Assembly: GCA_964418415.1 (NCBI GenBank)
Contig: CAYQLB010000003.1
Span: 12,618 to 76,617 of the forward strand
Length of the DNA: 64,000 bases
Origin: an uncultured Candidatus Peribacteria bacterium
GTDB lineage: Bacteria; Patescibacteriota; Gracilibacteria; Absconditabacterales; Absconditicoccaceae
Direction of reading: 5' to 3'
Below, one piece after another: positions 1,887 to 29,571 of the stretch; the first letter of the stretch is position 1; each line of letters begins with the position of its first letter. The notes beneath the pieces were generated by a model that made no database searches, was not told where the DNA came from, and saw only the letters and a program-made list of their open reading frames with translations. The position numbers and the translations under genes were made by a program.

Positions 1887-2283
1887 CGATGTAATGTGTC
1901 CACTATCAGGAGGAATCCGTTCTCACCCCATCACGTCATTCCCGTGCCAAGTGTTTGAAGAGGGAATCTATAGCGATATAGCTTTTTAGCATGGATTCCG
2001 GCTGCAAAACTTATCGCCGGAATGACGTCCAATAGTTTTGATATGGATTCTCACAGAGTTTATCCCGCAAAATGGGGTTCGTATAATGTATCGTAAACCA
2101 TTACCATCCATTACGGGCGGAAGCCCTCATTACATGAGCATTAGCGAATAAATTATTATTTAAAAGTATTATAGTATATATGTCAAGTCTTCCTAGCCGT
2201 TTAGGAGGGCTTTTTTTGTAAAAAAAGGGCTTTTGGAATATAATCTTTATATAGTACGACCTTTAGATTTTAGATTATATAGC

Positions 2284-4032
2284 ATGACTAATATCGAAAC
2301 ATTAAAAACTGAGGTGGATCAGGTAAAAATCGATCTGGATGCTTGTAAAGCAGAAACCTCTGAAGAAATCAAGAAATCCAAAGCGGAGGCAGCTGTTCTT
2401 AGAACCGAAGTTATAGAAAAGAAAGTAAAAGCCGCCAAAGAAGAGATCATCGCAAAGATTACGGCGCTTGAAGCCAAGACTGATGCGACCTCAAAGGCAG
2501 AAGTTATCGCATACAAGGCTGATCTTGCTACGATTGAAGAACGGTTGACAAGCATAGATGCTTCAAAAACGGAACTTGCTACGCTTCAGGCTACGGTTAC
2601 TACGCCAGAGCCTGCTATAACCGAAACCACAGATAAAAAAGATGAAACAAAAACGGATGATACCGATAAATCATGGATCAGGAAACAGCGGGATGGTGTG
2701 ACGAGCAAAGAAGAATGGAAGACAAATACCTGAGCGAATGTCGCCCGTATAGCATGAGGAATCGGGATAGTAGCATTAGGTGTTCGAGGGATCAAAAAGC
2801 TTTTTGGTATAGGTAAAGATAAAGAAAAGAAAGATAATTCATGAGACGAAAAGAATACAGAAGAAACAAAAGAAAAAAAATGAAATTCGTGGCGGAAATG
2901 GCTACTTGGTGGATGAATATTGGCGGCAGGGTGATATGGTCTCTATAATCTATTGAAATGAAAATGATTGAGTTTCGAAGATTCGCTTATCGCAGCAGAA
3001 GCTGATCTTGGAACTATTTCTGAATCAGATGAAATAAATATCGATAGATGAAAAATCAGCTATGAAGAATCAGTTAAACAAATAAAATCATATGGATTGG
3101 GTACAAAGATAGATAAATGAGGGTTGTTTAGTGCAAAAAAGATAGAAGGATTGGATATAAAATTCTCAGACTATAAACAGCTTATTCACGCTGCAAATCT
3201 TGTAAATTATATCAAACATAAATATACATGAAGATGTGAAACAGATACGCCTTTTTACACCAAATCATCTACATGAGATATTTATATCAAAATTAAAGAT
3301 TGAGAAAATAATACCAAAGAAGAAGAAATTATTAGTGGTGGTATTCGATCTACATTATCAAGTATATGCCCTGATGTTCTTAATGGCATATTTACCGATA
3401 CGAAGAATAAAGATAAATTTCTTGCTTATTTAAACAAACAAGGTGTTTGGAAAGAATGAAATGTAGTTGCTCCTGATGCTAAATGAGACAAGATACAAGA
3501 AAAAATGAATGAGGTTTGGCAAGAAATAGTCGATACACCAACCGAATTTGATCCATTATGAAAAGAAAGAGGACAAATAATTGCTACAGCAAATACTACG
3601 GATAAGACTGAGTATACGATTAAGAGTCGATGAACCCCACAACAGGAAACAGAAGTGAAAATGGAGGCTAATACTGATGGTACAATTACTTCATGAAAGA
3701 TAGATGGTTTGTCGATAACATTCACTACTGTGGAAGAATTATTAAGAACCGCAAATTTGATCAATAAATTAAAATATCAATACCATGTCGTAACACCATT
3801 ATTATTGGGACCAAATGAAGAAGCATTTTATCGAACGAGTTCATTTTGAATAGTATGATGACATCCATGAATATATGTTGATAATTCAACAACGTGGACT
3901 TTGGATGATAGAGTTATCAAAAAAGAGACATTAGAAAATATATTCCCTACGATTCTGAAAAACAAAGAAATATTTATTAAATATTTAAATGGATTGAAAG
4001 ATGAAAATGGTAAGGGATTGCGAGAAAAATAA
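2284..4032 (+). CDS. coiled-coil membrane protein (582 aa), short paralogue of the next gene
   Basis: ATG 2284 to TAA 4030, with more than 20 in-frame TGA. It has a ~110-aa heptad-rich N-terminus. A TM hairpin follows (ANVARIAGGIGIVALGV / Lys-Glu linker / SWWKWLLGGGILAAGGYGLY, with CGA/CGG read as W). The ~400-aa C-terminal domain has no motif I recognise. Confidence 0.7.
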
Positions 4033-4190
4033 TACAAAAAGTAAAAAAACCTTTTAAATACATATAAAGTATATATATCGTAATATGTCAATAAATATTC
4101 GTTATCAGACGGGTATTTTTTTGTTTTAAAAGGCACTTTCGGGTATAATAATTATAGAGTATATGACCTTTAATTTTGAGACCAAAGAGT

Positions 4191-7100
4191 ATGACTCCAA
4201 CAACAACTATTGAGACATTACAGAAAGATGTAGATTTGATAGCTACAGATTTGGCTGATCTCAAAAAATTGACCGATGAAAAACTCAAAGAGACCAAAGC
4301 TGAAGCAGCTGCAGATAAAGTAAAGACCGTTAAAGAAACAATCAATAAAAAGATTGAAGCGCTCAAAGGACTTACTGATGCAACTTCAAAAGCAGATATT
4401 ATTAAGCTCGAAACGATGCTTACGACATTGGAAGCTTCAAATAAAGAGCTTGAAACGCTCAAAACTGCTATTATGACTCCCAAGATAGATATCGATATCC
4501 CGGATACCAAAGTAGAGACGATGGACAATAGTGCAGACCTTGCTACCATCAAAACTAATATCACGGAAATTACCACATTGGCGACTACATTACAATCAGA
4601 GATAGATGCCTACAAACTAGCGAAAGCCAAAATGACGGCAGCAGAAATCACTGCCAAAGACAAAGATATCGTAGACAAAAAAGCAGCTATCGAAACCAAA
4701 AGGAAAGAAACCCAAGCGCTCATAGATAAAATCAAAGCAGCACGGAAAGCGCTCAAGATAAAAGATATGGAAGAAGGTGTACCCAAAACCGCATTAGAAA
4801 AACTTCAGACTGCAGATTTAGCAGTGCTTACTGCAGATCAGACAGCACTCGATAAAATACTGACTCCCGGAAGGACATTGTTTGAAAAAGTAGGTGATTG
4901 AGTTGGTAAAGTTCGAGGGAAAGTCAAAAACTGAGCTGAGAAAACACGAGAATGGGCAAAAGAAAATCCCAAAACCGCAATTGCTGCTACTGCAGGAATC
5001 GGATTTTTAGTTCGATGAATTTCCAGATTATTCAGGAAAAAGAAAAAAAGCGAAACAGGAGACGAGTGAGGAAAGAAAGAGAAGAAAAAAATGTCACGAC
5101 GAAAGAAAGCACTCTTACGATGATGAGGGATCTTGGGATGAATAGTTTTATTTAAAAATCGAGATAGAATAAGTAATCGGTTTAAAGGATTATTTGGTAA
5201 GAAAGAAGAAGATGCCGGAGGTGGTGCTACAGCATCTGAGACTATATCTTCTACCGAAGAAGCTGCAGAAAGCTTTGAAGTCTTAATGAAAGAAAAACCT
5301 GAATATGCAAACAAAATGAATACATTTTGAAATAATGTAAACGACTTTTATGATTCGATCTATAAATTTGATGACTGAACCATGCCTGAATGACTTACAG
5401 AATATACTCTTGGAACAGGGAAAGAAAAATATGTATGAGCAATTCCTCATGTACTCAATAATAGTTGTAAAGATTTAAATGATCTGAATAGCAAAGAATC
5501 TTTATTTAAACTTTGTGCTTATGGTAAAATAGCTGAAGTTCAAAAATGATTTGCTGATTTAATAGCAGGATGAGCTTGGAAAGTTGTAGGTGGTGTTATG
5601 TGAATGTTTGGTCTTTCATGACTTGTATCTGAAGAAAAGGTAAAGGGTGCTGTTTCTGGATTTCTTTGAACCAATGATATACCCGAAATCAATAAGGTCT
5701 TTAGAAAGATGCTTAAAGTTATGTCATATCTAAATTATGCAGAGAATTTAGTTGTAGCTCAACAAATAGAAAAAGCGATTGCCTGATGAGATAAGTTATA
5801 TAAAAAATCAGGTGATACATATGAAGAAATAGAATATCCAGCTGATAAAGAGGATGCTAAAGATCTGATAAATGATATCCAAAATTCTCCTAGTGATTAT
5901 AAACTTGGTGAAAAAGAATGTTCTGGTATAATAAGTGATATCAGAGGTAAAAAAATATATGATTTTGTGGAATATAATATCACTTCAGAGAAAATACGGG
6001 AATATAATCCCGATATCAAAGAGAGTATGAAAGATATCAATAAAGAAAGAGATGAAATAAGGAAAAAATTGGATAAGGATCCTGTTGGTACTTTAGAAAA
6101 AATGAAATGAGAAGCTGAGGATAAGATCGCTAATGGTATGTTTGAATCTATAAGAGACTTTATGCCTGCTTTGCATTTGGCAGAAAATATCGGTATAGGA
6201 CAAGATGCGAGTATCGAGAGAATGATCAAAGAAAGTGCTTGATTTAAAGATAATCTCGCAAAATATAAAGAAAAATTCGATCAATTGAAAACAGAAAAAG
6301 ATTTGAATAAGGTAAAAAAAGAGATAGATAATTACTATGCTACATTGAAAGAACTTCGTACAACCCAGAATGCTATGATAGAGACGTCTGATGAAAACGG
6401 AAATTTTATGCTGACCTTATGAAATTCTGCCAAGGATTTTTTTGTCTGAAGCGGTCAAAACATTACGTATGGGATTTCACTTATCCGGACAGGTAATGTA
6501 TGGAAGATTATTGAATGAACTGGATATGCTGTAACATGAGCGGGACCTTTTGTAATGGGACTGGGTATGTTTTTGAAATCAAAAAACATTATTTGTGCAT
6601 GAGCAAAAATGACTGTTGCTCCTGTCTATTATCCTATAAAATGGTGAGCAAAATTGTTCGGTAAAAATATCGAAGCAGAGTTTACTAATCTTTTGTGATG
6701 ACGTTTTATGAGTAGATTTTATCGTACTACTGATTCTCTTATTGATTGAATAGGAAAATGAATGTCCGTGAAAACTGCATATACTATTTTCAAATCCAAT
6801 GCAAAGGTTACAACATCAGTTGCAGAAAATTTTGCTTTCAAAGTATTATGAGCTACTGAGGATAATGCTAAATCTATTTGATCTCTTATTGAATCATGAA
6901 GATTTGATGTTGTGCAAAAAGCTCTTTCAAAAGATGTCTCTATACTCACGTGAGGTAAACGAATCAAAACTACTATTGGTATAGAGAAAACAACACTTGA
7001 AAATCTGACTGCTATCCAGAATATTTTGAAACAATGAGGAAATGCTTGAACAAACATGGAAAAATTTGGTTATGAACTCCTTGCAAAGTCCAATGTTAAT

Positions 7101-10100
7101 AATCGATCTAAAGTAAAGGATATATTATCAAGGGCTGATATAATGGATGATGTTAAATCTCTATCTTCGGTAGATGATGTAAATTTGCTTGCCAAAAATT
7201 TATGATCTTCTCTCGATAATGTTGAAGTTATTGATGATATTTTTGCTCAAAATTGTAAAAATGTAATTGCTTCTTTGGATGAACTCAAAAAATCATCTGG
7301 TACATGATTTAATGGTGTTATGAACTGATTGTTAGAAAAAATAGGAATTTCAAAAAAAGTGTTGAGTACTACAGAAATTACTGATGAAGCAAAAATAATT
7401 AGTGAACAGATGACTAAAATTTCTGGAGTTGCTGCTTTGGATGATGCAGCAAAAGCTAGTTTAAATATCGAGGTAAATGCAACGGCATATAGTCATCTTC
7501 TAGAAGGTACAGATAATGTAGATGATTTGACAAGAAAAATTATAGAAGAATGTAGTTTTGCAGATCATAAAGATTATTTTATAGATACACAAAAAATAGC
7601 TGAAGCAAAAGCATATGCACAATTTCTTATGGATAGTAGAAAAGTAGGTACAGCAATAGAATATACAAAAGACTTAACGCCGATAAGTAGTGTACTGAAT
7701 ATGGGAGATTATAATAAGTTAGCAAAACTCATCAATAAAGGAAAATCAGATGATATAGTAAAATTCTTAACAAAAAGGTTGGATAAAGAATGAGTAGAAA
7801 ATGCTTGAGAATTAGCACAAAAATTTGCCGATCAGACAAAAGGTATGCAAAATGCAGACAAAACAGAAGTTGCCAAGATAATAGGATTGAGTGAAAAAAA
7901 TACAGAGAAAGCAATCATCGCTATCACCAAGTCTCTTGCACAAGATAAAGTATTTGTTACTAGTATTTTAGCGCTTAATTGAGATGCAAAAGCAATTACT
8001 GAGGCATTAAATAAAAAATGCTGATTGATTTGAACTAATGTTACTATAACAGAAGAGTCTGAAATTGTCCAGAAGCTTGTTAATTGTGAAAAAGCTCAGG
8101 ATGTGGAAAAAACATTAGAATATACTTCCAAGGGATTAAAGCGAAGAATTGGTATTTCAGGTGTAACTGCAGCTCTTGCTATAGCAGGGGCAGTGATGTC
8201 TATCGTAGATACCGTACATGCATTCAATATGATAGAAACCACCAATAATGAAGATCTTAAAGATGTATATAGACAAAGAGGGTATGTAAGTGCATGATTT
8301 GCAGCTTTGGATACTTTAGTGGCAGTAGATGCTACCTGTGAATTGGCTTATTTAGCTTTCAGTGTAGGTCAATGAGCATTTATGTCTACAGGAGTAGGAG
8401 CAGTAATAATTATTGCAATACAAGGAGTTAGATATATGTATGATCAATATTCCTTGTGAGCGGAATTCCAAGCAAAAAATGCAGAAGATCGAAGAAAAGA
8501 ATGACTTTGATTATATTTTATATGGTATTATAGAAGTGGAGGAAAAACATCTTGAGAAAACGTGAAGGATTTTTTTGGTTCAGCTACAGATATGCCATTA
8601 GAAAAAATAGTAGAGTGATTGATAGATCAGACGTTATGAATACAGGAATGAGCAGGGACTCCAGATCAGCAGAGAGTGAAATGATATATGAAAGAATATA
8701 TGACAAAAAAATATGACAATAAATTAGATCATATGGAATCTGCTTTTTCTATGATGTCAGAAGCTTTGGAATATGCAACGTTTGCAGAATATATAAACAA
8801 TATCAAAAATTGAATAGTGAAACAAGATCAGATAACATGAGATATGGCAGATTTTATGTCAAAATATCCAGTAGCAAGCAATCAAGATAATCTTATAGCA
8901 TATTTCAATAAATACAAGGATTTCGTTAACGTACAACAGACACAGAACTTAGAGAAATATAGAGGTAATTTGCAGAAATATTCTGACCAAGAATTGACGT
9001 TTATCTATGAACAATTAGGAAGATATAATGATTATTATATACTTTCAGTAGAGTGAGTTAGTCTATTAACCGCAGTAAGAACACTATTAAAAGAAAAAAA
9101 TATAGATACATCAAAATTACAATTAAATTTTGAAGAACCACCAATCAATAGAGAACAGATAGAAAAATTTATTGCTACGTTAGGAGCAGAAGGAAATCTT
9201 CAAGAATCCATTGGAGATGCTAGTGAAGTGAAAGGAAAAATAGATCAAGTTATCATCAGTGATGAAGATCTTATAGAAAAATATTGAGCGGTACCGACAT
9301 TAGAGATATATACTTTTCTTAAGATAGCGAGAATATTTGGATATGCAGGAGAAGCTGATTTAGATGGAATAAAAATATTTCTCTCTGAAGAGAGTAAAGA
9401 TAAACAAGGGATCTACCGAGATTGAAATGAATGGAGGATAAATAATACGGCATTTTGGTCAGGATTTCGAAATAGATTTGGAAGAGATAGAGCAATATGA
9501 ACATGAGATAATGCAGTAAAAAATCTGAAAGATAATATAGATAAGATGGATTTTGATGATAAATATCTCTGAGCATTTGATTCTGCTGGTATCAAAACAA
9601 AATTAAATCAATTAAGGGAAGATATAGATAAAAAGATAGAAGTAGATAAAATGCAGAGCATTGCGCCTGTAAGCAAAAATGAGATAGTTGAATATCTCAA
9701 AAACAATAATTGAAAATATACCTTATTATCTATACAATTATTAAGCAGACTTTTGCAAAAGAATGCTGTTAAAAATTCAGGACATTATCTTTTTAAATAT
9801 GAAAACAATAAGATAATAGCTCTTCCATTAGATACACATGCAAAAGAAAAATTATTTTTTGTAGATGAAATAGATACATCATCGGAATCAAAATTTAAAT
9901 ATGAAATAATGACTGAATTGGATGCTAAGCCAATGTTCAATCAATTACAAGATCTCAGAAAAATCATTAATCTGGATGATGACGAATTCGATGTAAAACA
10001 AAATCCTGCGATAGAAAAGATTATTGCTGACAAGGAAATGGAAATCCAGATATTCATGAGTAATCTCAATAATTATGATAAACCGAAACAAAAAGAGTTA

Positions 10101-10601
10101 TATTATAAAAAATTAGAAGAGATTGAGGCATTTCATCAATCATTTTTGATTTCATTCTTATCACAATCTGCTGATAATACATTCTCGAACGATGTTGACG
10201 AGGAAAATGCAGATGAAAAAATACTCCAATCAACCAAATACGGTGAGTGGCAGAATTTCAACAGTGTTATTGTTAATAAATACAAAAAAGAATATAATGT
10301 TTTGCAATTATCTGATGAAATTTTAGCTAAATTAAATGGATTAGAATGATGATTTGATTATGTTAATTATTATTATAGAGGCATTTCATTAGCTATGTTT
10401 AAATCATATGTATTATATCAAGAAAATGGTCAATTCCACGCACAAGGAGATCAAAATCTGGAAATAAACGAGTTAGAAAAGAATTTATGAGAGATAAAAT
10501 CCTATAAGGAGTATATGAAACAATTCAAATGAAAAGAAACAACTGACGATATTGCATTAAATTTTAGTGGTAAAATACAACAAATAAAGACAATAGAATA
10601 A
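4191..10601 (+). CDS. giant polytopic membrane protein (2136 aa) with N-terminal coiled coil
   Basis: I checked codon by codon that frame 3 has no TAA/TAG from ATG 4191 to TAA 10599. Five track ORFs (4176, 7329, 8103, 8844, 9753) are all in this frame and are joined only by TGA. The N-terminus is paralogous to gene 2284. There are several hydrophobic helix clusters (about 4950-5150, 5560-5640, 6480-6640, 8150-8440). Confidence 0.75.
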
Positions 10602-10622
10602 TTTTATTCTTTATATTTTATT

Positions 10623-11573
10623 ATGTCCGGAGATCAAGAAACAACGCAAGAAAATTCAGAAGAAACCACACCAGAAGACGAGTCATCAGAGATGACGATT
10701 GAAGATACAAAAGAGCAATTGGCTAGCATGTATCTCAAATTTCTCGATGAGAAAAAATGAGGGATATTGGGTACTACAGCATGATTGGGTGTTAATCTCA
10801 ATCCGCTTCAAAAAGACGCGGTAGAATATTTGACTACGGATAAAACAGTCCCAGATAAAAAAGATTTTTTCTCAAACATAGGGAAAAACATCAAAAAGAA
10901 ATTTGTAGAAAAGTTTACCGGATGAACTATGTTGGAATATAATAAAGCAAGTCTGAATAAAATGAAAGCTCTGATTACTCAATATAAAGATGATCAGACA
11001 AAATTGCAGGAGCTTATGACACAGATAGAAGACGGTATAGATCCTACCATAGCAGCAGTAGCTGCTACTACACCAGTCGTCGCTGATGCTGTTACACCAG
11101 ATACCAAAGTGGAATATGACGACAAAACCAATAGAGAGAAGGTATTAACCCAATTAAATAAGGTAATAGAAGAAGATAAGAAGGACCCTATCAATTATCT
11201 CTGGTGAGGAAAAAAGGATCCCGAAGGCTGATTAGATTGTTCGTGATTGATTTATTATACACTAGATCAGGCATGATTGAAGACGTCACTCGATTCTAGA
11301 TCGATGTTTAATGATTTCGATACCAAGAAATTGGAGCTCAAGGAGTGAACACATGAGGTAACTACCGATGTTTCTGATATCCAGGAAGGCGATATCATCC
11401 GATGGAATAGTACAAATAAGGACTATAGCCGAAGGACATGAGCATTTTATGCAGAGAACGGAATCAATGATGTAGATATTATCGACGATGATACAGTAAA
11501 ATCAAAATTCAGTCGATTATCGTCTGAAGCTAACCAGACAACATTCCTTAATTTCGTAAATGCTATGAAATAA
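10623..11573 (+). CDS. NlpC/P60-like cell-wall peptidase (catalytic His not evident)
   Basis: ATG 10623 to TAA 11571. Motif YLWGGKKDPEGGLDCSGLIYYTLDQAGL is the NlpC/P60 Cys box, with 4 of its Gly encoded by TGA. GDII follows downstream, but I found no HVG-type His. Confidence 0.65.
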
Positions 11574-11604
11574 TATCTTTTATCTTTTTCTCCACTAATC
11601 GTCA

Positions 11605-12687: not shown

Positions 12688-12713
12688 ATATCTTTAATGA
12701 TTTTCTTTACTAC

Positions 12714-13301: not shown

Positions 13302-13383
13302 TATACTATAATTAAAAGATTAAAAGACAGTAATGTTTTGTAATGTATAGTAATGAATTCGCTACGCTCATGTAATGTATTGT

Positions 13384-13752
13384 TTAATTTTTTGTTAGGA
13401 TTTTTTTGGCTTTAGTTATGAAATTATTGAGTTTAACTGAAAGAATATCTAAATTATGTATAAATTGGGTATATTCATATTCGGATAATAGATTCCTATC
13501 GTGTAACGTTTCTATCCAATGTTTGCTTTCCTGTAAAGATCATCTTGCAGTATAATAGAATTTTATAGAATCTAAATAATGAAACCTTCCAAATCATTCA
13601 GCAATATTTGCTCAAATACTATCAATAGCCCTTACAAATTGACTTCACAGTATCTTTTTGAGATCAAAGTTAAGTCTCTTATAGATATGTCGTGCTTTTT
13701 TTCCTAATGTACGAGCGATACTATAAATTTCCAGATCAGCGATTCATTTCAT
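13384..13752 (-). CDS. four-helix-bundle protein (TIGR02436 / 23S rRNA IVS protein family, Avd-like)
   Basis: MKGIADLEIYSIARTL..SQFVRAIDSIGANIAEGFGRFHY..YTARGSLQESKHWIETL matches the family signature (SxxSNIAEG, ARGSxxE). Five in-frame TGA. Confidence 0.75.
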
Positions 13753-14172
13753 TCTACAATTCATTACACGAAGTAAATTACAATTCATTACATCCGCGTC
13801 AGCGGATACATTACATATCCAATTTCGATGTCAGTATAATGTTTTCCTTGACAGTGTCAAATCATTTTTGACAAAATCAATCATATTTTTGACAAGCATA
13901 GAGAATGTAGTTCTCCATATAACAAAAATCTCTTGATTTTCTAAAATAATTCATTAAAATTGATTTTGTTGATGAGAAAGAACTCAAAAAAACGATTTGC
14001 TTGTCATGTACGATTGATGTCGTAATCGGTGAATCGATAGAGGAATTTGCTCGTAATGCATTGTAATGATTCCTTCGGAATGTAATGATTAGTAATGTTC
14101 ATTACGCCGTAGGCACATTACGCTGCAAGCACATTACCGTAAATTAGTTTTATACTATTATAATAAAATATC

Positions 14173-15261
14173 ATGACAACCAAGAAGCAAGAGTTACAGG
14201 AAGCGTTCAAAAGTATTGAGAAGCAATTTGGAAAAGGTGCTATTATGAGAATGGGAGACAATGCCAACGTAGGATTAGTGAATACATTCCACAGCGGATC
14301 CTATGTATTAGACTTGATTTTGGGAGGATGATATCCTGAAGGAAGAGTCGTAGAAATTTACGGACCGGAATCTTCAGGTAAGACTACTATTGCATTACAC
14401 GCGATTGCAGAGATTCAAAAGAGAGGAGAGACATGTGCATTTATCGATGCAGAGCATGCACTCGATCCACAGTATGCAAGAAAACTCGGTGTGGATGTTG
14501 ATAATTTATTACTTTCACAACCAGATTTCGGAGAACAAGCTTTGCAGATCGCTGAAGAATTAGCAAAGACAGGCGCAATTAGATTGATTGTCATAGATTC
14601 TGTAGCAGCTTTGGTTCCTAGAGCTGAAGTGGAAGGTGATATGGGAGATTCTTATATGTGATTACAAGCAAGGATGATGTCACAATGACTCAGAAAATTA
14701 TCATGAGTATTAGCAAAGACATGAACTACATGTATCTTCATCAATCAGATTCGTATGAAAATTGGTGTGATGTTTGGTAATCCAGAAACGACTCCTGGAG
14801 GTAATGCACTCAAATTCTTTGCATCTCAGAGGGTAGAGATTCGTAGAGGAGATAAATTATTGCAAGACAAAGAACAAATAGGGTATTTAGCTAAAATCAA
14901 GATAGCAAAAAACAAAATATCTGCACCGTTCAAGACAGCAGAATTGCCTGTGAAGTGGGGGATAGGATATGATAAAACCGCAGATATTGTAGAATCAGCG
15001 ACAGCACTTAAGTTGATAGATAAATCATGAGCGTTCTATACCTTTGGTAAACAAAAATTCCAAGGGAAAGAAAAGTTTATAGCTGCTTTGGATTCTGATG
15101 AAAAAACAAGAAGTAGTATCGAAAAAGATATTCAGAATAAAATCAAAGAAATGAGAATGGGTAAAAAAGTTCTCGATGATGAAGCATTGATCGCTGTAGA
15201 AGCAGAAGTAGAAGAAAATGCAGCTGAAGCATTAGCTGAAGCTGGTGAATTAATAGCTTAA
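14173..15261 (+). CDS. recA: recombinase RecA
   Basis: [29 protein letters not shown].., Walker [34 protein letters not shown] 14329-14331 is the third Gly of LGGG-YPEGR. Six in-frame TGA, TAA 15259. Confidence 0.97.
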
Positions 15262-15325
15262 TAAATTTCTTACATAACAATAATATTCTTTGCTACTATG
15301 ATACATATATACCAGCTATAAAAAA

Positions 15326-15351
15326 ACCTCTGCAGCAACCAGAGGTTTTTT
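15326..15351. terminator. rho-independent terminator between convergent recA and CHAP genes
   Basis: Stem acctctg / cagaggt with an A-run upstream and a T-run downstream. Confidence 0.7.
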
Positions 15352-15371
15352 GTTATGTAAATATGTTACTA

Positions 15372-16682
15372 TTATACTTCGAGACTAAATTCACCTATTT
15401 TTGTTTCATCAATAGTGATAATAATGGATGCTTTTCCTGCTTGTTGTGCAAGAATAGCGATATCCATTTTACCGTTATTGATGATCTTTATATTAGAGAT
15501 GTCCGGTTTAAAAGTATCATTTGTTGAAAGTACCGTGAATGCAAATGGTAGTAGTCCTGAATATTTTTCTCATGTTTTTTTATCAGTGACTTCTATAATT
15601 AAAGAAGCCATTTCGCCGAATTTTAGTGGTGAATTAGTGACTAAATGGATAATGAGATTATTTTGTGTGAGAAAATGTTGAGCGATATCACTGAGGTCTT
15701 CCAAATTAAGTATAAGATCTTTATTGATAGATGTCTGGGGTAATATAATCGGTGTAGTTGGTAAAGTTGGTGTTGTTGGTAAAGTTGGTGTGGTTGGTAG
15801 AGTTGGTGTAGTTGGTAGAGTTGGTGTAGTTGGTAGGGTTGGTGTGGTTGGTTGAATTGGTGTAGTTGGTAGGGTTGGTGTGGTTGGTAGGTTTGGTTTA
15901 GTTGATTGAGTTGATGTAGTTCCTGTATTTTGACTACCTGTATTAGTTATTGGATGTATAGTATCTTCATCATCTTCATCAGTAGAGGTGTTTTTATTGT
16001 TATAAATATAGCATTTCACCTGTGCTGTGGTAAGGTCATCTCGACGATCAGACATTTTTCCTCTACCTACCCAAGCCATATCTCTGACAATGATTTTTTT
16101 CATAGATTTGTCGTAGTGAAGAACTTTGCCTACATGTCCGTATACTCAAAATCTACCTCAAGCATCATAGACAATCAATGCTCATTGAACTGGAGTTGTA
16201 CCTATTTTATATCAGGTTTCAGCAGCATTTTTACATCGATCTACAGCATTCCCTCACCATGTTCTTTGTTGGGTATTGTCATCGATAAATGGAAAAAATT
16301 CAGGAGAAATTCTCGCTGCTCCGTAGGTACAATATCATTTGGTGAATGTATTTTCTATATCCATACTCATATCCCATATAGAGATAATATTTCCTTGTTT
16401 GAGTGAGGTGCCTGGGTTTTTCATAGCTTCCACTAATGCTTGTGATACTTCACTACTATTGTTTCTATAGAGTTCTTCACTATATCCGGTAAGATTAGCA
16501 AAAAGTCGAGATCAAGAGATTAAGGTTAATAGTACGACCCCCATAAGTTCACCAACATGTATCAGGTGATGATGGAAATATTGATGGATATGAAAAATCT
16601 TATGCACATGTCTGTGTATGTGTTTTTTGATATGATTATGTATTCTGTGGTGAAGAGCTACGTGCTTCTTTATTTTTTTCAT
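15372..16682 (-). CDS. CHAP-domain peptidoglycan hydrolase with His-rich N-terminus and PT-repeat linker
   Basis: ATG at 16682, TAA at 15372-15374. CHAP Cys box FTKGYCTYGAARI and His box GVYGHVGKVL. Eight TPTLPT repeats. The C-terminal ~110 aa is an unknown domain. Confidence 0.85.
15751..15895 (-). repeat. 8 x 18-bp in-frame tandem repeat encoding (TPTLPT)n
   Basis: ggtgtagttggtaRRgtt units read directly. They translate on the minus strand to PTTPTL repeats. Confidence 0.9.
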
Positions 16683-16808
16683 GGCACGATAAAGGCTAAA
16701 GCGAGTAAACGTTCAAACGCATAAATGATGCAATATTTGTGTATACAGTATCATTTAGTCGCTCTATCGTTTAGTCCTTAAGTAATTATAGTCACAGAAG
16801 TCAGTTTT

Positions 16809-17008
16809 GTCAAATTTCAAACGACTTTTTTAAAGGAATGAATTTGACTCATCATTCAATGAAAAATACTGAAACATATTTTTCAAGAATGAAGTAGTCA
16901 AATTTCAAGGGACTTTTTTAAAGGAATGAATTTGACTCATCATTCAATGAAAAATACTGAAACATATTTTTCAAGAATGAAGCAGTCAAATTTCAAGGGA
17001 CTTTTTTG
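16809..17008 (+). repeat. 88-bp intergenic tandem repeat, 2.3 copies
   Basis: Units start at 16809, 16897 and 16985 (gtcaaatttcaaRSgacttttttaaaggaatgaatttgactcatcattcaatgaaaaatactgaaacatatttttcaagaatgaagYa). Each unit contains the inverted repeat gtcaaatt..aatttgac. Confidence 0.9.
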
Positions 17009-17085
17009 TTTGAATTACTTGGGCAAAAAGTTACAAGTTAAAAGGTTAAAAAGTTAACCTTTCAAACTTTCAAAACGTGTAACCT

Positions 17086-18213
17086 ATGAATAAACATATC
17101 CTCTTCGTCTTGGACTATTATCTTCCTCATAAAGGCTGATCAGAAACAGTGTTTGAAGCTATTATTTCTCGTTTACTAACAAAAGGATATACGGTATCTG
17201 TTTTGACGAGTCACTTCGATTCAGCATTGCCGCGTGAAGAAAAGAAAGAGAATTTTCATATATATAGGATCGGCAAAGGAAGAATCAGTTTTATGGTTGG
17301 GGCGTTGAGTAAAGGAATAAAAATTTTAAGAAAACATAAAGATATTGCACTTATCCATACGAGTACCTATGGAGGAGCAATCCCTGCTTCATTGCTCGGA
17401 AAATTGTTTCATAAGAGAGTGATTTTGACCGTTCATGAGGTGTTTGGGAAACTTTGGAATCAATATAAAGGATGGCGAAAAGCTTGGTTGTATAGGATAT
17501 TCGAACGTGCTGTGTTTCGATTCCCGTATAGCACGTATCATTGTGTATCGTATTATACTATGAATGCACTCAGAATGATGTACGGCATTCCAGACAAGAA
17601 GATCAGGATGATTCACAATGGCGTAGATACGGCATTCCGAAATCCCGATGAAGTTCCTGCTTTTGATGGTAAAACACGAAGAAATGAACATGGTCGAAGT
17701 AATCGTTTCGTGGTAACCTATTATGGTCATGCAGGCAAATCAAAATGACTCGATTATTTGGTTCGTGCCTTACCTGAGTTGGTTACTGTAGATGCTCAGC
17801 TCCTTTTTGTTTTCAATCTCATAGATTCCAAAAGAACACAATATATCAAAGAAAAAATAAGGAAATATCATCTCTGATCTTCTGTTCAGATATTTGATGG
17901 TTTCGAGAAAGAACAGCTCCGCACATTGATTTCAGCTTCTGATATGATCGTGGCGCCATCTATCTCTGAAGGATTCTGATCCGTACATACCGAAAGTGTT
18001 GCGATGAAAAAACCGTTATTGACAACCTATATAGCATCTATTCCAGAAGTTGTACGAGGAAATGTAAGATTTATCTCACCTACATCCAAAAGAGACATAA
18101 TCCAGGCTATCCTTGAACGTGAGGAATGGATTGATAATCCGGACTACTTCATTCCGCACAAGGAATTTTCACGAAATGAAACGGTAAAAGAACTGATTAC
18201 ACTCTATCGTTAA
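17086..18213 (+). CDS. glycosyltransferase family 4 (GT-B, Glycos_transf_1)
   Basis: MNKHILFVLDYYLPHKGG.. N-terminus. C-terminal E-x7-E region is APSISEGFGSVHTESVAMKKPLL. Track ORFs 17149 and 18004 are in one frame, joined by TGA. Confidence 0.85.
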
Positions 18214-18274
18214 AAAAAAAACTAGGTACGAGGCATAAGGAACAAGGTCCAATATGTACGTCCTAGTTTTTTGA

Positions 18275-21200
18275 TTATTTTTTGTTGCTGTTATAAATAA
18301 ACTCTTTTACATCATCTAAACTGCTGAAATATCTTTCACTAGTGAATGTATAAGATGAATATCTACCATTAATATCCTTGAAGAAATAGAAAACCTTTTT
18401 ATTCGGTGCAGTGAATGGTGATGTTTGCCATATTCCATCGATGCGCGCATTTTTCCATCGAGCTAAGATAGGTTTAGCATTCGCATATTGTGATCCTGCA
18501 GGATTATTGATATCGATGATATATTTTAATGTATCCAAGGTAGGGAAATATTTAGGCACTACGAAATTCGTCGAAGTGAACCGTTGTGTTGCGCTATCAT
18601 AGGTGATAGTGTATCTTTTACCATTAGGCGCGGTATAGACACCATTATTGATTCGATCCATAATATCTATTCCTTCTTCGCCGAATTCATCGCTTTCATA
18701 ATATTCGTCAGCGAGATCATAGAGGTATTTCAATGCTTGCCATTCTGTATCATCTTCATCGTCGATATCATCCATTTTCTCTTCGAGCATAAGCATAAGG
18801 GTATTGAAGAATTCTTCTTCTTTGTCTCCTGCATAGAGATCTCTTAATGTTTCGAAGAGATAGACAACAATAAGTTTCTCAGTGTTTGAAAGATCAGTAT
18901 CGATATCGTCATAATCATCATCTACATCATCATCTTCTTCTTTGGTGGTAACTTTGAAAGTATCTGACTTACTATCGATAGTCAGCGTGCTTTCCACGGA
19001 ATCATCATATTCATCGCTTGAGATAAGCTCTATTTTTACTGTCCATCCATTCTGTACATATCACGTAGTTCCTACAGCATTTCCGCTGATGTAGAGCATT
19101 CCTCTATTAATGATTGCAAGTACTTGTGTTCCTGTAGAAAGACCACTGATAGTAATAGTATTAGACATATACGTTTCATCAAGGTCAGCATCATCGATAT
19201 CATTGAATGAAAATGTATTTGGTGTTGTATCCAATATTCCGCTATAGATAAATGATGATGTTGTGGAATATCATGAGTTTCCAAGATTATCTGTCGCTGT
19301 GACATACCGGTAATATACTCAATTGCTGAGAGTAAGGTTAGGTATGGTAGCTTGAGTAGTTGTTGTTGTAGATCACGATCGTCTGATAATAGTGAATCCT
19401 GTAGTATCTGATACATAATATCTATATCAAGAAATTCCCACCGCATCACCAACACCTGATCGGCTGAGAACAACATTTCCACTTACACTAGCTCAACTGA
19501 GTGGACTGCTAAGTGTAGGAGAGATAACCGTAGTGTCTAGATATACAGAGAGAGATGGAAGAGTTACCGTATCTCCAGAAGTATTCTCTAGAGAAAGCTG
19601 TACGGTTTTAAGTCCATCATTTCCCGTAAGTTGTGGATTAACAATAATATGTCAGGAGATAAGTCCTCCAGTAATACTATTTACTATATCAGATCATGTG
19701 ACTAGATATTTGTATGGTTGATTAGCTCGAAGATCTATTGAAGCATATGCTTTGACATATCGGTATGGCGTAACGTAATAACGATTTGTTCCTGTCAGTA
19801 CTGCTTGTCCTGAAAGTGGTGTGGTGATCATAAACGGTAAGATTTGGCTCATACCTGTGTTTCCTGCACGATCTGTGATAATAACATATCGGGTATAATC
19901 CAAAGCATTATTCATAGTATGTATAGTATATCCTGTATTTGTTGTTGTGATAGTGTGTTGATAACTTCAGGTTACATACAAAGTATACCCAGAAATTGCT
20001 GTTTCATCGAAGCCTGTCCATGAAAACGCAATATTGTTAGTTCCGGTGATATTGAGTCCGCTCGTAGGATAATTTGCCGTAACTGATGGATTCGTCATAT
20101 CTATAGTAAAGATCATCCCCGTAGAATTATCAGCAAGATCGTAGACAGTAAATATATAGGTTCATTCTGAACTCACTATTTCCCCATCAGTAAAGTTTCC
20201 ACTATAATAGGAAATATTCATTCCACTAACTATAGCTCCAGAAATATACAAATCATTAAAATTGATAGTAATTCATGTGTTGTAGTAACCTCCACTGATG
20301 ACATTACCGGATATTAATGACCCTAATGTAGTGCCGGTAAATACAGGTTTAATTTTATCTATAGTAAAGGTTATTCCTGTGGTATTTCCTTCATTATCTT
20401 CCAAAACGAAAGTATAGGATCCATCTCAAGTAATGAGGGCATTATTAGTATATGGAGTACTGTTTAATAGAGCTCATGAAATATTAAGTCAGGTGAACGC
20501 TATCCTGATTCCGGTATTATAATATCCACCATTAGTAATAATAGTTCCTGATTGTGTTGTTCCTGTAAAGTATAATCATGGTGTTCAAAATGAGAAGAGT
20601 TTAAGTGTTCCATTGGTAGAGAAAATACATTCAAGAGATGTATTTAATATACATCAAGAATCTATTGTATTTGGTGACCATGTGTTTCCGTCGATTGATT
20701 TTAATATACTAAGATATTGTCCTATAGTTCATGATAAGACTTGATAATATATCGTTCCTGTTCCTTCATTCATAGTAAGATAGGTTGATCCAGAAATTAC
20801 CTCTATAGTATCAAAAAATGTTGTAATCAATTGTGCTGATCATACATCTCATGTTGTTGCTAATTTGATTCCTGTAGTTATTTTTGTCGGTATATATACT
20901 GTACCATCTCGGTTAGCTCCAGAAATAGTAAATGAAGTACTTCAGTGTATTTCAAAATTTGTTGCTAAACGTAGATGATCAAAATAGATAGGGAATGTTC
21001 ATCCTATAGATAAAATGTTTCATGTTAATTTTGCAGAATTTAATCCTTCAATTCGTATATCATTATTTTGTGTGTAAGTGTCATAAGTAGTATATTGAAA
21101 AGATCAGTAGGCATTAGATTCAATAATGCCATTATCTCATGAAAAATAAATTATTCTATTTCACGTGGAATTTTGCATTAATATATTCCATCATCAAATT

Positions 21201-22909
21201 CAATAAACGATAGAATTCATAATGTTGTTATTATTGCTATTATCCAAGAATATTCATTGACCGCCGTTTCATGATAATATGCTTCAAGAGATAATATTTG
21301 CACTTGATCATGTAAAGACTATTCCTTCATTATAATTGCTGTTTATGACAGAATTTATGATTTGGGTATTGTTTGAGGTGTCTAATGTTATTCAATTATC
21401 TTCATTACTTGATAAATTACATGAATCAATAATAGTTCAAGAAGAAAAAGAAAGTAAAATACCATTACCATTAAAACCAATAAGTCCATTATTATTGAAG
21501 GTTGAATACATGATATTATTACTTGTTCATGTTTCAATCACTATTCAGACTCTACTGTTATATGTACTAGTAGAATGAGTGATGGTATTGTAATCACTAT
21601 ATGACATATATACTCCATGTCCCATATTTCCTGAAATTATTGCTCAGCTTATCGTATTATCAGATGAATTGGAAGTGAATACGATTCCATTTTTGGAATT
21701 GTTACTGATGTTTATAGATGTGAAGATATTGTCCATTGAATCATCAAGATATAATCATCCTTCATTGCTGTTTGAGACGATAATCATTCATGTATTGTTG
21801 TTTGAGTTATAGAAATGTACTCATGCATAATAATTTCCGTAGACATAGATTCACATCAAATTATTACTTGAAGAATTGTTGAAATATACTCACATAGCAT
21901 TTGCACTATTATTGGCAGTGATATCAATAAATGTATTATTGTTGGAATTATACGTAGATACATTGTGGTCTGTGTTGTTATAGGAATCTACATTAGTGAA
22001 TGAACTATTACTTATTCATTGTAAGGATACCCCTTTTCATATGTTTGATGAAATATCTATATCAAGAAAATTGTTATAGGATCATGTTAATAGTGATACT
22101 CCATGGGTATTATTGTTGCTATTTATACCACTAAATACGCTGTAGTTTATATTGTTAAATGCAATTCCATATACACTATTTTGATATGTTTGTACATTAT
22201 TCATGAAAATGTTGCTTACATTAAGACCCACTATTCCATTTGAATTATTGTGGAGTTGTGTATTTATAATATCCATATAAGATACTCCAGAAATGAGAAT
22301 GCCATATGCATTATTTGATCATGTCGTATTTTTATACGCTTGGAAATCTCTTACGGTTGTATTCATGCCGCCATCGAGGTAGATTCAGAAATGTCATTCG
22401 TTGTTCCCGTCTACTCTTATTTTTTCAATAATGATATGTTTGTTTCCATTACCTTTGATGATGGCTGGATTGGTCGTATTACCTGAAAGTGTGACTATTC
22501 CCGAACTAATCAATGCTACACAATCGTTGAGTGTAATCGGAGCTGTTACATCATAAATGTCAGAATCTATCACATAGATAGTGTTTGCTACGGTTGAAGT
22601 GGGAATCGTTCATGTGAATTCTACTGTCATTCATCCGTTCAAGCATGAACCAGAATTGTATCCTGTCCAATGCTGTGTATATGCGGTGTTTTCATCACCG
22701 CTTCCATAGAGCGCTCGGATGATATCATCATCAGTCGGTGCATTATCCCAAAATAATCAGCTGAGATAATTGGAATTATCTCGTGTGATAGTTCCTACCG
22801 TCCGTGTTGCTGCATTCGCGAAGAATGCATAGATTCACAAGAAAATCCCCATAGCGATAAAGAGGATGCTCATGAATTTTGAAACGGTTGATTGTTGTGT
22901 GTGTTCCAT
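18275..22909 (-). CDS. giant surface protein (1544 aa): signal peptide, Asn-rich parallel beta-helix repeats, Fn3/Ig-like modules, acidic tract, C-terminal domain
   Basis: ATG at 22909 (MEHTQQSTVSKFMSILFIAMGIFLGIYAFFANA). There are ~20 repeats of the type NNxxNGIxxxxSxNNxI (pectate-lyase/NosD-like). Fn3 signatures are VVLSWSGVGDAVGISGYRYYV and GVYYWYVTATDNLGNSG. An acidic run EEDDDVDDDYDDIDTD is present. Track ORFs 18275, 19694, 22082 and 22835 share the frame. I checked 18995-19500 codon by codon. Confidence 0.8.
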
Positions 22910-22949
22910 GATATGGTTGAAATGATAAATGATAATTTGGGCTACGCCC

Positions 22950-23083
22950 GTAATGAGACTTTGTCGGTAATGTGTCCTATCGGACGTAATGAATTGTAAT
23001 AGACCTTGAGTCGTAATTGGTAATTGATTACGCGACCAAAGGGAGCAAATTACGCGAAGCTCATTACATCGAAGATTTGTTAC
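22950..23083. repeat. GTAATG...CATTAC mini-hairpin array in a divergent promoter region
   Basis: GTAAT(G/A/T) at 22950, 22967, 22986, 22996, 23013 and 23020. Orientation then switches to (C/A)ATTAC at 23027, 23048 and 23062. The spacers are small palindromes (gac ttt gtc, gtcc tatc ggac). Confidence 0.8.
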
Positions 23084-23309
23084 ACGAACGCAGTGAGTCA
23101 TATACTATTATATACGCAGAATTGAAAATTGCGAAATGTGTCCTATTCTGATATATATTCAACTTGCTTTTTTTATAAAAAGTTATGAAATATGTTAACA
23201 TACAAAACCATTGAAACGTCGAGGGAAAAACGTATTTACAATACAATACCATGTATGATGTGAAATACATAGTATAAAATATTTTTTTAGCATATGTAGT
23301 GATATTATT

Positions 23310-29397: not shown

Positions 29398-29571
29398 CTT
29401 GCAAACTTTTTGGACATGAATATCAAGATAAAAAGCAATTAGAGATGATAAATGATAGATGTTAGATGAAGGATTTTGTTTGTATATAGACTATAGTAAT
29501 GTTACAATAGTTTATTTTAGTAAGTCATACATTTATCATTTCTAATTTATCATTTATCATTACAATTTATC

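Follow-up and report, generated by a model that had tools for sequence, protein, structure and literature searches.

The genome of an uncultured SR1 (Absconditabacteria) bacterium carries about 28 arrays (counted with a 5-mer core) of a modular repeat, apparently not described before, in which the hexamer CATTAC is combined with mini-hairpins and two half arrays stand back to back between genes. We propose, with a probability of about 0.4, that this repeat is a strand-polar module which lies on the 5' side of genes and acts in single-stranded form. SR1 belongs to the Candidate Phyla Radiation, whose members have very small genomes with few recognisable regulators. In this genome, the element marks the start side of about 28 operons.

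In the 64-kb window, i.e. the whole stretch of DNA that was analysed, GTAATG/CATTAC occurs 68 times, compared with 33.7 ± 5.65 in 100 dinucleotide shuffles (shuffle maximum 56), so base composition does not account for its frequency. Throughout the genome, 18 strict clusters of at least three hexamers were found versus 0–1 in 20 shuffles, in agreement with the original prediction of a dispersed and non-random repeat family. The whole hexamer excess is confined to arrays, which hold 131 exact copies spread over 28 loci. Outside arrays, 653 copies were observed against about 744 expected, i.e. at or below expectation. These numbers bear on the idea that arrays are clustered sites of a mobile restriction-modification or methylation system and serve as epigenetic promoter marks. 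It is favoured by the head-to-head arrangement of an asymmetric hexamer and by a distribution in the genus that is patchy, like that of restriction-modification systems. However, the hexamer is neither depleted nor enriched outside arrays, the hairpins are left unexplained, and full-length N6/N4 methyltransferases (PF01555) do not track the CATTAC genomes, being present in G000 and G010 but likewise in G007, G009, G020, G021, and G043, and absent from G022, G041, G011, and G014. We consider this explanation very improbable.

The true repeat unit exceeds the hexamer and comes in two forms: the decamer CATTAC-n-A-T-n, and CATTAC with an immediate mini-hairpin and exactly one further base. Decamer spacers (n = 46) are characterized by A at spacer position 2 (52/54, 96%) and T at position 3 (38/54, 70%). 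Hairpins make up 86 of 154 spacers, beginning directly after ATTAC and stopping 2 nt short of the next ATTAC, which bears out the alternation of hexamers and mini-hairpins suggested earlier. Within half arrays, decamers are central and hairpin units outer (48 ordered pairs vs 8), and many halves are composed of hairpin units alone. Spacing of hexamers is irregular (8–24 bp), and there is therefore no helical phasing. Tandem blocks of identical units, considered with regard to phase-variable simple sequence repeats (contingency loci), comprise four of 16 bp at C2:17918, three of 20 bp at C3:4938, and five of 14 bp in L175. Assembly gaps occur at arrays.

Orientation switches read GTAATG…CATTAC in 20 of 23 cases and have the opposite polarity in three, so the switch at the array centre, first described in the window, is a regular feature. 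The switch point is often GTAATG-NN-CATTAC, a centre present in exact form at 8 loci here vs 0–1 in each of 24 sister genomes. The dyad is intrinsic to the array and not a mere by-product of divergent genes, because full dyads are also found in 10 of 13 co-directional spacers.

All five arrays reported in the window were recovered at their positions, and their features are:

1891..1896, minus strand: lone GTAATG, the remaining unit of a left dyad half, with an insertion between the two halves
1897..2098, no strand: insertion of ~200 bp in the dyad centre, an unrelated, CCGGA-rich dispersed repeat
2099..2155, plus strand: right dyad half, CATTAC x3 at 2099, 2109, and 2128
13330..13377, minus strand: half array toward lexA, CATTAC x4 (GTAATG at 13330, 13340, 13350, and 13372)
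13387..13752, minus strand: Avd-like four-helix-bundle gene (Pfam 23S_rRNA_IVP, PF05635; E-value 3e-23)
13762..13814, plus strand: right-pointing half array, CATTAC 13762, AATTAC 13776, CATTAC 13786, CATTAC 13809
14053..14137, no strand: complete dyad upstream of recA, GTAATG x4 (14053, 14063, 14082, 14092) and CATTAC x3
22950..23098, no strand: degenerate dyad between a beta-helix gene (minus strand) and a PKD gene (plus strand), left and right halves with four hairpins

The core of the insertion at 1897..2098 has BLAST matches at no fewer than 8 other loci in the genome. It is missing from the orthologous spacer of MAG nzgw385 (L175, 5611–5735), which contains an unbroken dyad of six GTAATG and at least four CATTAC. 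The right half that follows the insertion contains a single decamer spacer (catc) and a single hairpin of the GGAA type, gggcGGAAgccc, and ends in a degenerate GA-clamped hairpin, atgagcattagcgaat, followed by AAATTAT. The half array toward lexA begins 6 nt past the stop of the Avd-like gene and ends 29 nt from the lexA ATG, with two decamer spacers and one GA-clamped hairpin, atGAgcGTAgcGAat, in between. A block proposed to be shared by the loci at 2128 and 13355 is indeed present at both, although the copies (atgagcATTagcgaat vs atgagcGTagcgaat) are also distinguished by a 1-nt indel and not by substitution only.

Hairpins of the half array at 13762..13814 are acGAAgt and atccgcGTCAgcggat; it folds at -6.4 kcal/mol (z = -4.9), and at the orthologous site of G005 the array is retained, one stem having changed in a compensatory manner (atcccg...cgggat). 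The recA dyad is centred on the palindrome GTAATGttCATTAC (14092–14105), and its CATTAC copies at 14100, 14116, and 14132 follow one another in exact 16-bp steps, as first read. It incorporates the hairpins attccTTCggaat in the left half, gccGTAggc, and gctGCAagc, the latter two being replaced by gcGAAgc and gccACAggc in the orthologous dyad of G010. In the degenerate dyad, the left half is comprised of three GTAATG (22950, 22967, 22986) followed by GTAATA and two GTAATT, the centre is GTAATTGATTAC (23020–23031), and the right half reads GATTAC 23026, AATTAC 23048, CATTAC 23062, and TGTTAC 23078. Its hairpins are gcGAccAAAggGAgc, gcGAAgc, atcGAAgat, and acGAacGCAgtGAgt (23084–23098); the last unit and its hairpin make TTGTTA-18-TATACT. 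An array does lie between lexA and recA, but these genes are not direct neighbours as first read, since the Avd-like gene and a conserved 230-bp block intervene.

The 86 exact hairpins comprise 55 distinct sequences. Every spacer palindrome listed in the original prediction was found, with loops GTA, GCA, GGAA, GTCA, GATA, and GAA in CATTAC orientation. GNA loops account for 58 of the 69 triloops and TNC loops for none, and 76 of the 86 hairpins are closed by a C-G pair. Pairing within the 11-nt class extends to 94% of stem positions, compared with 62% when arms are permuted, and all four Watson-Crick types are present; in the 15-nt class, a tandem G.A is conserved and pairs on its flanks covary. 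Compensatory stem changes were also found between orthologs. The density of GNA mini-hairpins in arrays is ~20 times that of other intergenic DNA. On the outward strand, G is almost absent from non-hairpin positions: linkers (301 bases) contain 10 G vs 36 C (p = 1.6e-4), and one of 160 units has a hexamer beginning with G; the G content of hairpins is 32%. Nearest-neighbour folding gives -2 to -6 kcal/mol and no strand difference, the special stability of GNA loops being outside that generic model.

Arrays are located in divergent (12) or co-directional (13) spacers and essentially never in convergent ones (1 locus), the background being 113, 359, and 87, respectively. The proposed placement of switching arrays in promoter-bearing spacers is supported. 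Genes flanking arrays include recA, lexA, clpP, tig, frr, infB, lepA, deaD, and rnj, and pilin genes and large surface-protein genes are also among the ~28 operons. Several co-directional spacers are fully occupied by the array, from the stop codon to the next start. The last array unit abuts TTTAGT, and arrays end 0–9 nt before the TTTAGT/-10-like region preceding the start codon. No canonical promoter was found between arrays and genes, array-linked genes are devoid of the TTGAnn -35 found at tRNA promoters, and half arrays of contiguous dyads have no obvious promoter on their upstream side. The organism does not use Shine-Dalgarno sequences, and its leaders are G-poor.

The element is a genus-specific modular intergenic repeat built of two outward half arrays around GTAATG-NN-CATTAC, each of which reads outward as 5'-(CATTAC-n-A-T-n)n followed by (CATTAC + mini-hairpin + 1 nt)n; its anatomy, strand polarity, covariation, location relative to genes, and persistence with turnover of units are observed. 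From these features, together with non-randomness, G exclusion, irregular spacing, and the translation context, we infer that the outward, gene-sense strand may act in single-stranded form on the expression of flanking gene(s), either as the first part of the mRNA leader or, where negatively supercoiled promoter DNA is unwound, as its non-template strand. G-free hexamers and linkers would stay unpaired and serve as a periodic platform on which a hexamer-specific factor, or else the ribosome with S1, could land in this organism that dispenses with Shine-Dalgarno sequences, while all G would be held in compact C-G-closed GNA hairpins that stabilise and space the units. Arrays would evolve through unit duplication and loss by slippage. 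Because contiguous dyads have no obvious upstream promoter, the leader version needs promoters inside the array.

Several points speak against action as a single strand. The model assigns no role to the half that faces inward in co-directional spacers. A strong canonical promoter stands upstream of the array at 13762–13814, but with respect to the neighbouring Avd-like gene this array has the opposite (GUAAUG) orientation. Triloops of the GNA kind are typical of DNA, not of RNA, and fold energies are weak and equal on both strands. The recA array is accessory, because close relatives such as G007 lack it yet keep the conserved core promoter/leader block. Finally, exact reuse of one hexamer at 28 loci demands a sequence-specific partner, for which no candidate was found.

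Arrays could also be tandem -10-like promoters, with non-hairpin units that contain TAC-n-A-T or TAC-n-n-T matching the minimal -10 element TAnnnT. The dyad centre would then provide weak bidirectional promoters without a -35, and distal hairpins would be leader hairpins that stabilise the 5' end. Decamers do read CAT-TACnAT-n, with the A and T preferences given above, nnT follows ~12 of 16 terminal units (counted from the sequences), and in recA and clpP a TACCGT lies 6–9 nt upstream of the A/G of (A/T)TTAGT. The central position of decamers, the distal one of hairpins, and the array-to-gene interval devoid of a canonical promoter fit as well. Nevertheless, the equivalent of T-7 is less conserved than that of A-8, the reverse of true -10 elements, TAnnnT is frequent by chance at 34% G+C, and many halves have only hairpin units. 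In addition, hexamers between hairpins are conserved without any promoter role, and the recA core block, TTTTATACT, is conserved in array-less species. Tandem promoters are quite unlikely.

Comparison among related genomes revealed that arrays persist at orthologous sites in species with 70–79% coding identity, where hexamers remain intact and spacers change. Unit number differs between species, and at the same site either the presence of an array or its motif can vary. The CATTAC family was detected in 7 of 30 genomes in a patchy distribution that does not follow RecA identity. A sister family, TTTATC with the same hairpins, is present in 26 of 30 genomes of the genus, and the sister heptads TTTAGAA/TTCTAAA, which also form dyads, occur in the genome studied here. 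Periods of sister families are 7 and 8 bp, and several families coexist in each genome.

Arrays could alternatively be operator arrays in duplex DNA. A sequence-specific dimeric protein would nucleate on the 6-2-6 site GTAATG-NN-CATTAC and add protomers head-to-tail on 10-bp decamers, and this symmetric complex would replace the -35/UP region of -10-only promoters, with hairpins as a separate structural add-on. Enrichment of the exact centre palindrome over sister genomes, constancy of dyad polarity, and the 10-bp period of centre-adjoining decamers with their two extra conserved positions are all in line with such a complex. So are full dyads in co-directional spacers, as well as arrays that stop at the -10/TTTAGT region of genes lacking TTGAnn. 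Comparable sites are known, e.g. NarL 7-2-7 heptamers, omega heptad arrays of pSM19035, Bacillus PhoP TTAACA hexamers, and Fur GATAAT hexamers; in such operators, phasing is fixed, hairpins do not separate the sites, the cognate factor is known, and the regulon is defined. Arrays share with them short direct and inverted half-sites upstream of or overlapping promoters, including the inverted pair with a 2-bp gap, but here the flanking genes are diverse housekeeping genes. Moreover, hairpin units place hexamers at 14–24 bp, so that phasing is lost, sister families have other periods, and linker G-vs-C asymmetry and the strict polarity of GNA loops are unexplained. A motif that varies among species and is patchily distributed would require repeated co-replacement of the factor and all its sites, and no candidate factor was found. 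We regard duplex operators as rather unlikely.

Patchiness, presence or absence at the same site, and the coexistence of multiple families side by side point to a further explanation, a selfish or neutral mosaic repeat, which we hold to be possible, if doubtful. Dyads would be inverted arms of intervening-sequence-like elements, with or without an Avd-like ORF, or mosaics resembling BIME/NIME. They would colonise permissive intergenic DNA, grow by slippage, and keep palindromes through template-switch correction, while effects on genes would be incidental. The Avd-like gene at 13387..13752 resides between the halves 13330–13377 and 13762–13814, an arrangement that resembles a split dyad, and a second paralog, at C15:18533–18859, is likewise flanked, by GATAAA and TTTATC arrays. 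Across the genus, ~12 of 27 Avd-like loci are centred in inverted k-mer arrays of several motif families, with the gene on either strand. The second repeat inserted into another dyad centre, the tandem blocks of identical multi-unit repeats, and the assembly gaps at arrays favour a mosaic too. Against it, the expected transposases (Y1/RAYT, TnpB) are absent, conserved termini or target duplications were not seen, and arrays avoid convergent spacers and abut gene starts, unlike REP/BIME. The polarity of loops and the exclusion of G speak for selection acting on a single strand, arrays exist also in genomes without a detectable Avd-like gene, and selection on the hexamer itself is indicated by its 131 exact copies (28 loci), which are maintained between species despite diverging spacers.

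The intervening sequences of 23S rRNA that carry an S23p/Avd-like ORF (PF05635) reside within helices of the rRNA, where RNase III cleaves the single long stem made by their arms. The same ORF family stands between inverted-repeat arms in the window copy, at C15:18533, and at the ~12 genus loci, and ORF-less versions exist in both systems, most dyads here being without an ORF. Arms of CATTAC elements differ in being unequally spaced hexamer arrays beside protein-coding genes, with arm pairing limited to the centre. The Avd-like gene is only a lead for the partner protein of arrays. It is unlikely, but conceivable, that arrays and Avd-like genes make up one system, in which a small oligomeric protein recognises the periodic hexamers exposed between mini-hairpins on a single strand and either regulates the ~28 operons or mobilises and maintains the arrays. 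A bacterium with few regulators and without use of Shine-Dalgarno sequences would then have recruited ORF-less copies similar to intervening sequences as single-strand expression modules. If true, this would be the first function of the widespread PF05635 family outside retroelements and the first genome-wide cellular use of GNA mini-hairpins.

The grammar of the element is strict and strand-specific, and mini-hairpins like those it is built from are known elsewhere from the origins of phages and from promoters of phage N4. Should the element control transcription or translation, it would constitute a new cis-regulatory logic; a selfish repeat would instead be a new type of interspersed repeat in prokaryotes, tied to the enigmatic Avd/S23p family.

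The repeat type had not been recognised at first, and the search for known families likewise disclosed none that fits. The RAYT profile (PF01797) has no match in this 93%-complete genome while control genomes matched, TnpB (PF07282) has no match in the genome, and Rfam has none at any array in positions 1–26000 of the window at E-values up to 1. REP/BIME (REPIN) sequences are similar in being intergenic mosaics, dispersed over the genome, whose short palindromic modules alternate in orientation; they too are species-specific in sequence, often at orthologous sites, and variable in copy number. REPs, however, are RAYT-dependent units of 20–40 bp with a GTAG head, mostly at 3' ends or in convergent spacers. 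CATTAC arrays have no RAYT, a 6-nt core with 7–16 nt hairpins unrelated in sequence (the 55 sequences above), and a position on the 5' side of genes with only one convergent locus; REP/BIME was therefore rejected. MITEs/PATEs derived from IS200/IS605 are characterized by TnpA(Y1)/TnpB, defined ends, and subterminal hairpins at a set distance from a TTAC-like cleavage site. These were set aside as well, because PF01797 and PF07282 are missing, hairpins directly abut TTAC, unit number is variable, and conserved termini were not seen.

TAACTGA repeats of Beggiatoaceae are short tandem heptamers upstream of start codons (PMC4679880). They and cyanobacterial STRRs, for which post-transcriptional roles were proposed, share with CATTAC arrays a short motif repeated immediately before many unrelated genes, in lineages where canonical ribosome-binding sites are few. 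Their direct repeats are contiguous, with neither hairpin spacers nor a fixed dyad of back-to-back halves, whereas CATTAC recurs with a period of 10 or 14–24 bp with hairpins in a dyad layout, and it was not classified with them. The sister heptads TTTAGAA/TTCTAAA are nearer to STRR/TAACTGA than CATTAC arrays are, TTTAGAA alone having the contiguous-heptamer feature. The Omega leader of tobacco mosaic virus, a translational enhancer, is G-poor with AAUUAC-type repeats (PMC9502800), which likewise stand right before the start codon, and it offers an analogy in favour of the single-strand reading. It is a viral RNA of ~70 nt in eukaryotic hosts, without hairpins or a dyad, and the resemblance may be coincidental.

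The closest likeness of the hairpins themselves is to the extraordinarily stable DNA mini-hairpins of the d(GCGNAGC)/d(GCGNNAGC) type, whose stability depends on the C-G closing pair (PMC13037366, PMC3201870). Array hairpins have the C-G closing pair and GNA/GNNA loops of this class on one strand, with stems of 2–6 bp, and literal gcGAAgc, gcGTAgc, and gcGCAgc are all present. Hairpins shaped like the phage N4 promoter (5–7 bp stem, 3-nt loop), which is read by a single-subunit virion RNA polymerase, also exist in arrays; the profile of single-subunit RNA polymerase (PF00940) has no match in this genome and none in control genomes either. Known natural cases of this class are single hairpins, at priming sites of phage G4 and RSF1010 and at early promoters of phage N4, in contrast to 86 copies here in ~28 chromosomal arrays, each hairpin tied to a hexamer.

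The studied assembly is a 34% G+C MAG of 1.04 Mb in 48 contigs, with the window at C3:12618-76617. The hexamer GTAATG/CATTAC was confirmed at all positions named in the original prediction, and its non-random occurrence was evident at two scales: 68 copies in the window against 33.7 ± 5.65 in shuffles, and 18 clusters of at least three hexamers genome-wide against 0-1 in 20 shuffles. Outside arrays there is no excess (653 copies, ~744 expected). The 5-mer core GTAAT/ATTAC forms 65 clusters (~32 in shuffles), of which ~28 are clear arrays. Together these four counts rule out base composition or chance as the cause. None of the 18 hexamer clusters lies in a credible gene: in each of the three cases that seem to do so, the ORF called there is spurious or extends too far. 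Several arrays adjoin N runs (C2:17918, C3:12156, C6:18893), suggesting that these repeats break assemblies.

The switch of orientation predicted for the array centre was also observed, with 20 transitions from GTAATG to CATTAC and 3 in reverse; the exact centre GTAATG-NN-CATTAC is present at eight loci in the genome. Read outward, as CATTAC, half arrays are composed of two kinds of unit. Decamers CATTAC-n-A-T-n account for 46 spacers, and in the decamer spacer A occupies position 2 in 52/54 and T position 3 in 38/54. Hairpin spacers (86) start directly after one ATTAC, with exactly 2 nt between their end and the next, and only 22 spacers fall outside these classes. Decamers adjoin the centre and hairpin units are placed outside them (48 ordered pairs vs. 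8). Decamers could be read as TACnAT, that is, as a tandem array of -10 elements, a reading that we consider very unlikely and that suits this kind of unit only. An array of operators bound as duplex DNA would account for the intrinsic dyad and for the 10-bp decamers, but leaves the hairpins and the strand asymmetry unaccounted for, and is unlikely.

The 86 hairpins comprise 55 distinct sequences with stems of 2-6 bp. GNA is seen in 58/69 triloops, purine-N-A in 68/69 and TNC in none, and the closing pair is C-G in 76/86 hairpins. Classes include literal gcGAAgc, gcGTAgc and gcGCAgc, together with 9-, 11- and 13-nt forms, and a 15-nt class, gcGAac-GNA-gtGAgc, in which the tandem G.A is conserved (14-15/16) between covarying pairs on either side. 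In the 11-nt class, stem positions are paired in 94%, compared to 62% (maximum 75%) when arms are permuted. C-GNA-G hairpins of at least 3 bp number 44 in ~5 kb of arrays; the remaining intergenic DNA (146 kb) contains 64 and coding DNA (878 kb) 324. The array hairpins match the GCGNAGC class of mini-hairpins. Such DNA mini-hairpins have been described as "extraordinarily stable", and this stability hinges on closure by C-G (PMC13037366, PMC3201870). Energies from a generic folding model gave weak and non-significant support for 3-bp stems, equal on both strands, so the case for hairpins is built on geometry and covariation, not on energy.

Composition differs between the strands. Linker bases on the outward strand, the one that reads CATTAC towards the flanking gene (n = 301), include 10 G and 36 C (p = 1.6e-4). 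Hexamers start with G in only 1/160 units, compared to 32% G in hairpins. The most economical reading of GNA polarity, C-G closure, covariation and exclusion of G from unpaired positions is selection on one strand.

We have also addressed the position of arrays with regard to genes. Translation with table 11 breaks recA and every large gene in the window, while table 25, with TGA as a sense codon, yields long ORFs. The conserved ClpP N-terminus (clpP, C8:4128-4703) reads MTLIPSVIEKVKGGER, with two TGA codons in a row at sites fitting Gly, which supports a probable assignment of TGA to Gly. The 27 loci occupy 12 divergent and 13 co-directional spacers, one "convergent" spacer beside a doubtful 132-aa ORF, and one unclassed contig end; the genome background is 113 divergent, 359 co-directional and 87 convergent. 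Most co-directional spacers with arrays hold full dyads, in which the inward half can start 8-11 nt past the upstream stop codon. Outward halves of arrays stop 24-86 nt ahead of the next ATG and 0-9 nt ahead of TTTAGT. Flanking genes are mostly housekeeping and comprise recA, lexA, clpP, tig, frr, infB, lepA, deaD, rnj, POR, rubrerythrin, DHFR, cmk, ybaB, endonuclease III, pilins and large surface proteins. A paralogous gene family as the driver of the repeat was rejected, since the flanking proteins are without mutual similarity and diverse in function.

Genome-wide, TTTAGT is found at -14 to -26 from ATG in 43/55 of its occurrences upstream of genes, often with TATAAT 1-3 nt ahead of it, and is not present in tRNA promoters, which read TTGAnn-17-TATAnA. 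Shine-Dalgarno sequences are not used in this genome: GGAG-like motifs at -20 to -4 occur in 16/563 upstream regions compared to 27 in a control window, giving no enrichment before start codons, and G drops to 8.6% at -20 to -11. The anti-Shine-Dalgarno tail is unreadable because the 16S rRNA gene was not found in the MAG. TTTAGT could mark transcription starts, or be a ribosome-binding signal in place of Shine-Dalgarno pairing.

Selection on one strand, outward orientation and position at gene starts together favour an element acting in single-stranded form, to which we assign a probability of about 0.4. The active form would be either RNA of the leader or non-template DNA in its unwound state. 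The inward half, which is left without explanation, speaks against such an element, and so does one array that follows a strong promoter but is oriented the other way.

Two array-bearing sites in the window showed further features. For the beta-helix protein, the longest ORF (18275-23101, minus strand) extends into the repeat array; an in-frame ATG at 22909 or 22873 is the more likely true start. Past the array at 2099-2133, the segment 2172-2225 contains tattatagtatat followed by atgtcaagtcttcctagccgtttaggagggcttttttt, resembling a promoter and then a stem with a T-run, and could specify a short terminated leader or a small RNA; the stretch atgtcaagtcttcctagc is conserved in the MAG nzgw385.

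The gene at 13387-13752, between lexA and recA, is Avd-like (Pfam 23S_rRNA_IVP) and has four GTAATG on one side and four CATTAC on the other. Its paralog at C15:18533 is bordered by four GATAAA and three to four TTTATC, with mini-hairpins. In the genus, ~12/27 homologous Avd-like loci are flanked by inverted k-mer arrays; at least five types of motif are represented, always with the purine-rich form on the left, whichever strand bears the gene. A match between Avd-like protein clade and motif family was not substantiated: the clade flanked by GTAAT corresponds to a single syntenic lexA-recA locus, to be counted only once, and provides no independent support. The array-gene-array segment is an insertion relative to four related genomes (G007, G001, G015, G012), and the 1891/2099 dyad is itself split by another dispersed repeat. 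Arrays were also found in genomes without a detectable Avd-like gene.

Between the Avd-like gene and recA, a ~230-bp block (13815-14050) is conserved across the genus. It contains three copies of TTGACA and the palindrome TTGACAgTGTCAA, as well as divergent promoters that overlap each other, minus-strand TTGACA-16-TATACT (13860-13833) and plus-strand TATAAT (13835-13840). The block has no Rfam match. It could act as the SOS operator region, or encode either a long leader of recA or a small RNA.

Among 40 relatives, the exact centre motif is almost confined to the genome of the window. The triple-CATTAC pattern occurs in 7/30 genus genomes (38 matches in G000, 33 in G022, 24 in G010), the family being strong in these three and weak in G041, G011 and G014, and its distribution does not track RecA identity; a reversed-pattern control carries no information for this count, CATTAC being identical read backwards. 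Orthologous arrays were located in other species: in nzgw385 for 1891/2099, in the relative L147 for C6:16326, in G001 for C3:4862, and in G010, G005 and G014 for recA. In them hexamers are intact, unit number and spacers vary, and stems change by compensatory pairs, e.g. gcTgcaAgc vs. gcCacaGgc. At the same place upstream of recA, other species either have no array or carry different short motifs in tandem, and the core block ATTnGTTTTATAMT is kept there in every species compared. With arrays missing from this site in most sister species and a different block conserved, a LexA box was rejected. Exact-protein look-ups found no strain variants. A selfish mosaic repeat, which would explain patchiness, insertions and the Avd-like cargo, does not account for hexamer conservation, avoidance of convergent spacers or strand-specific composition, and we regard it as doubtful.

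Two further repeat families were recognized in the genome. TTTATC(An), a sister family whose hairpins belong to the same classes (GNA mini-hairpins), is present in 26/30 genus genomes and was not seen in other genera. TTTAGAA/TTCTAAA heptads share the dyad polarity of the CATTAC arrays (n x TTTAGAA, then n x TTCTAAA) and are without hairpin spacers.

Arrays of the two further families
Window 29532-29571, TTTATC(An) octamers with GNA mini-hairpins
C12:3416-3455, TTTATC(An) octamers with GNA mini-hairpins
C14:2756-2795, TTTATC(An) octamers with GNA mini-hairpins
C7:25173-25194, TTTATC(An) octamers with GNA mini-hairpins
C3:12156-12272, TTTAGAA/TTCTAAA heptads, just upstream of the window
C6:3531-3657, TTTAGAA/TTCTAAA heptads
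C12:28537-28696, TTTAGAA/TTCTAAA heptads

When collections of genomes and metagenomes were scanned with GTAATG-N4-10-GTAATGNNCATTAC, most matches were due to chance, and L147 and nzgw385 (L175) were the only true relatives. A few further matches (L152 1197-1366; L131; L189 6267-6322, Nostoc; L144) come from organisms that are not related, among them a Nostoc MAG and metagenome contigs of high G+C. These have back-to-back arrays of their own, built from 7- or 13-bp units in which GTAATG happens to occur, so the layout of n motifs followed by n reverse complements is widespread.

Several known systems were rejected as the source of the arrays. The genome is without REP/RAYT and IS200/IS605/TnpB genes, and the defining tests for such an origin failed; the arrays at window positions 1-26000 have no Rfam match at E-values up to 1, and methyltransferases do not correlate with array family. 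No T7/N4-like RNA polymerase was found, but control genomes likewise gave no match. Literature searches revealed no description of dyads combining a hexamer with mini-hairpins. The element differs from contiguous heptamer repeats in failing their defining test. In general nature it is akin to REP/BIME, NIME and heptamer repeats.
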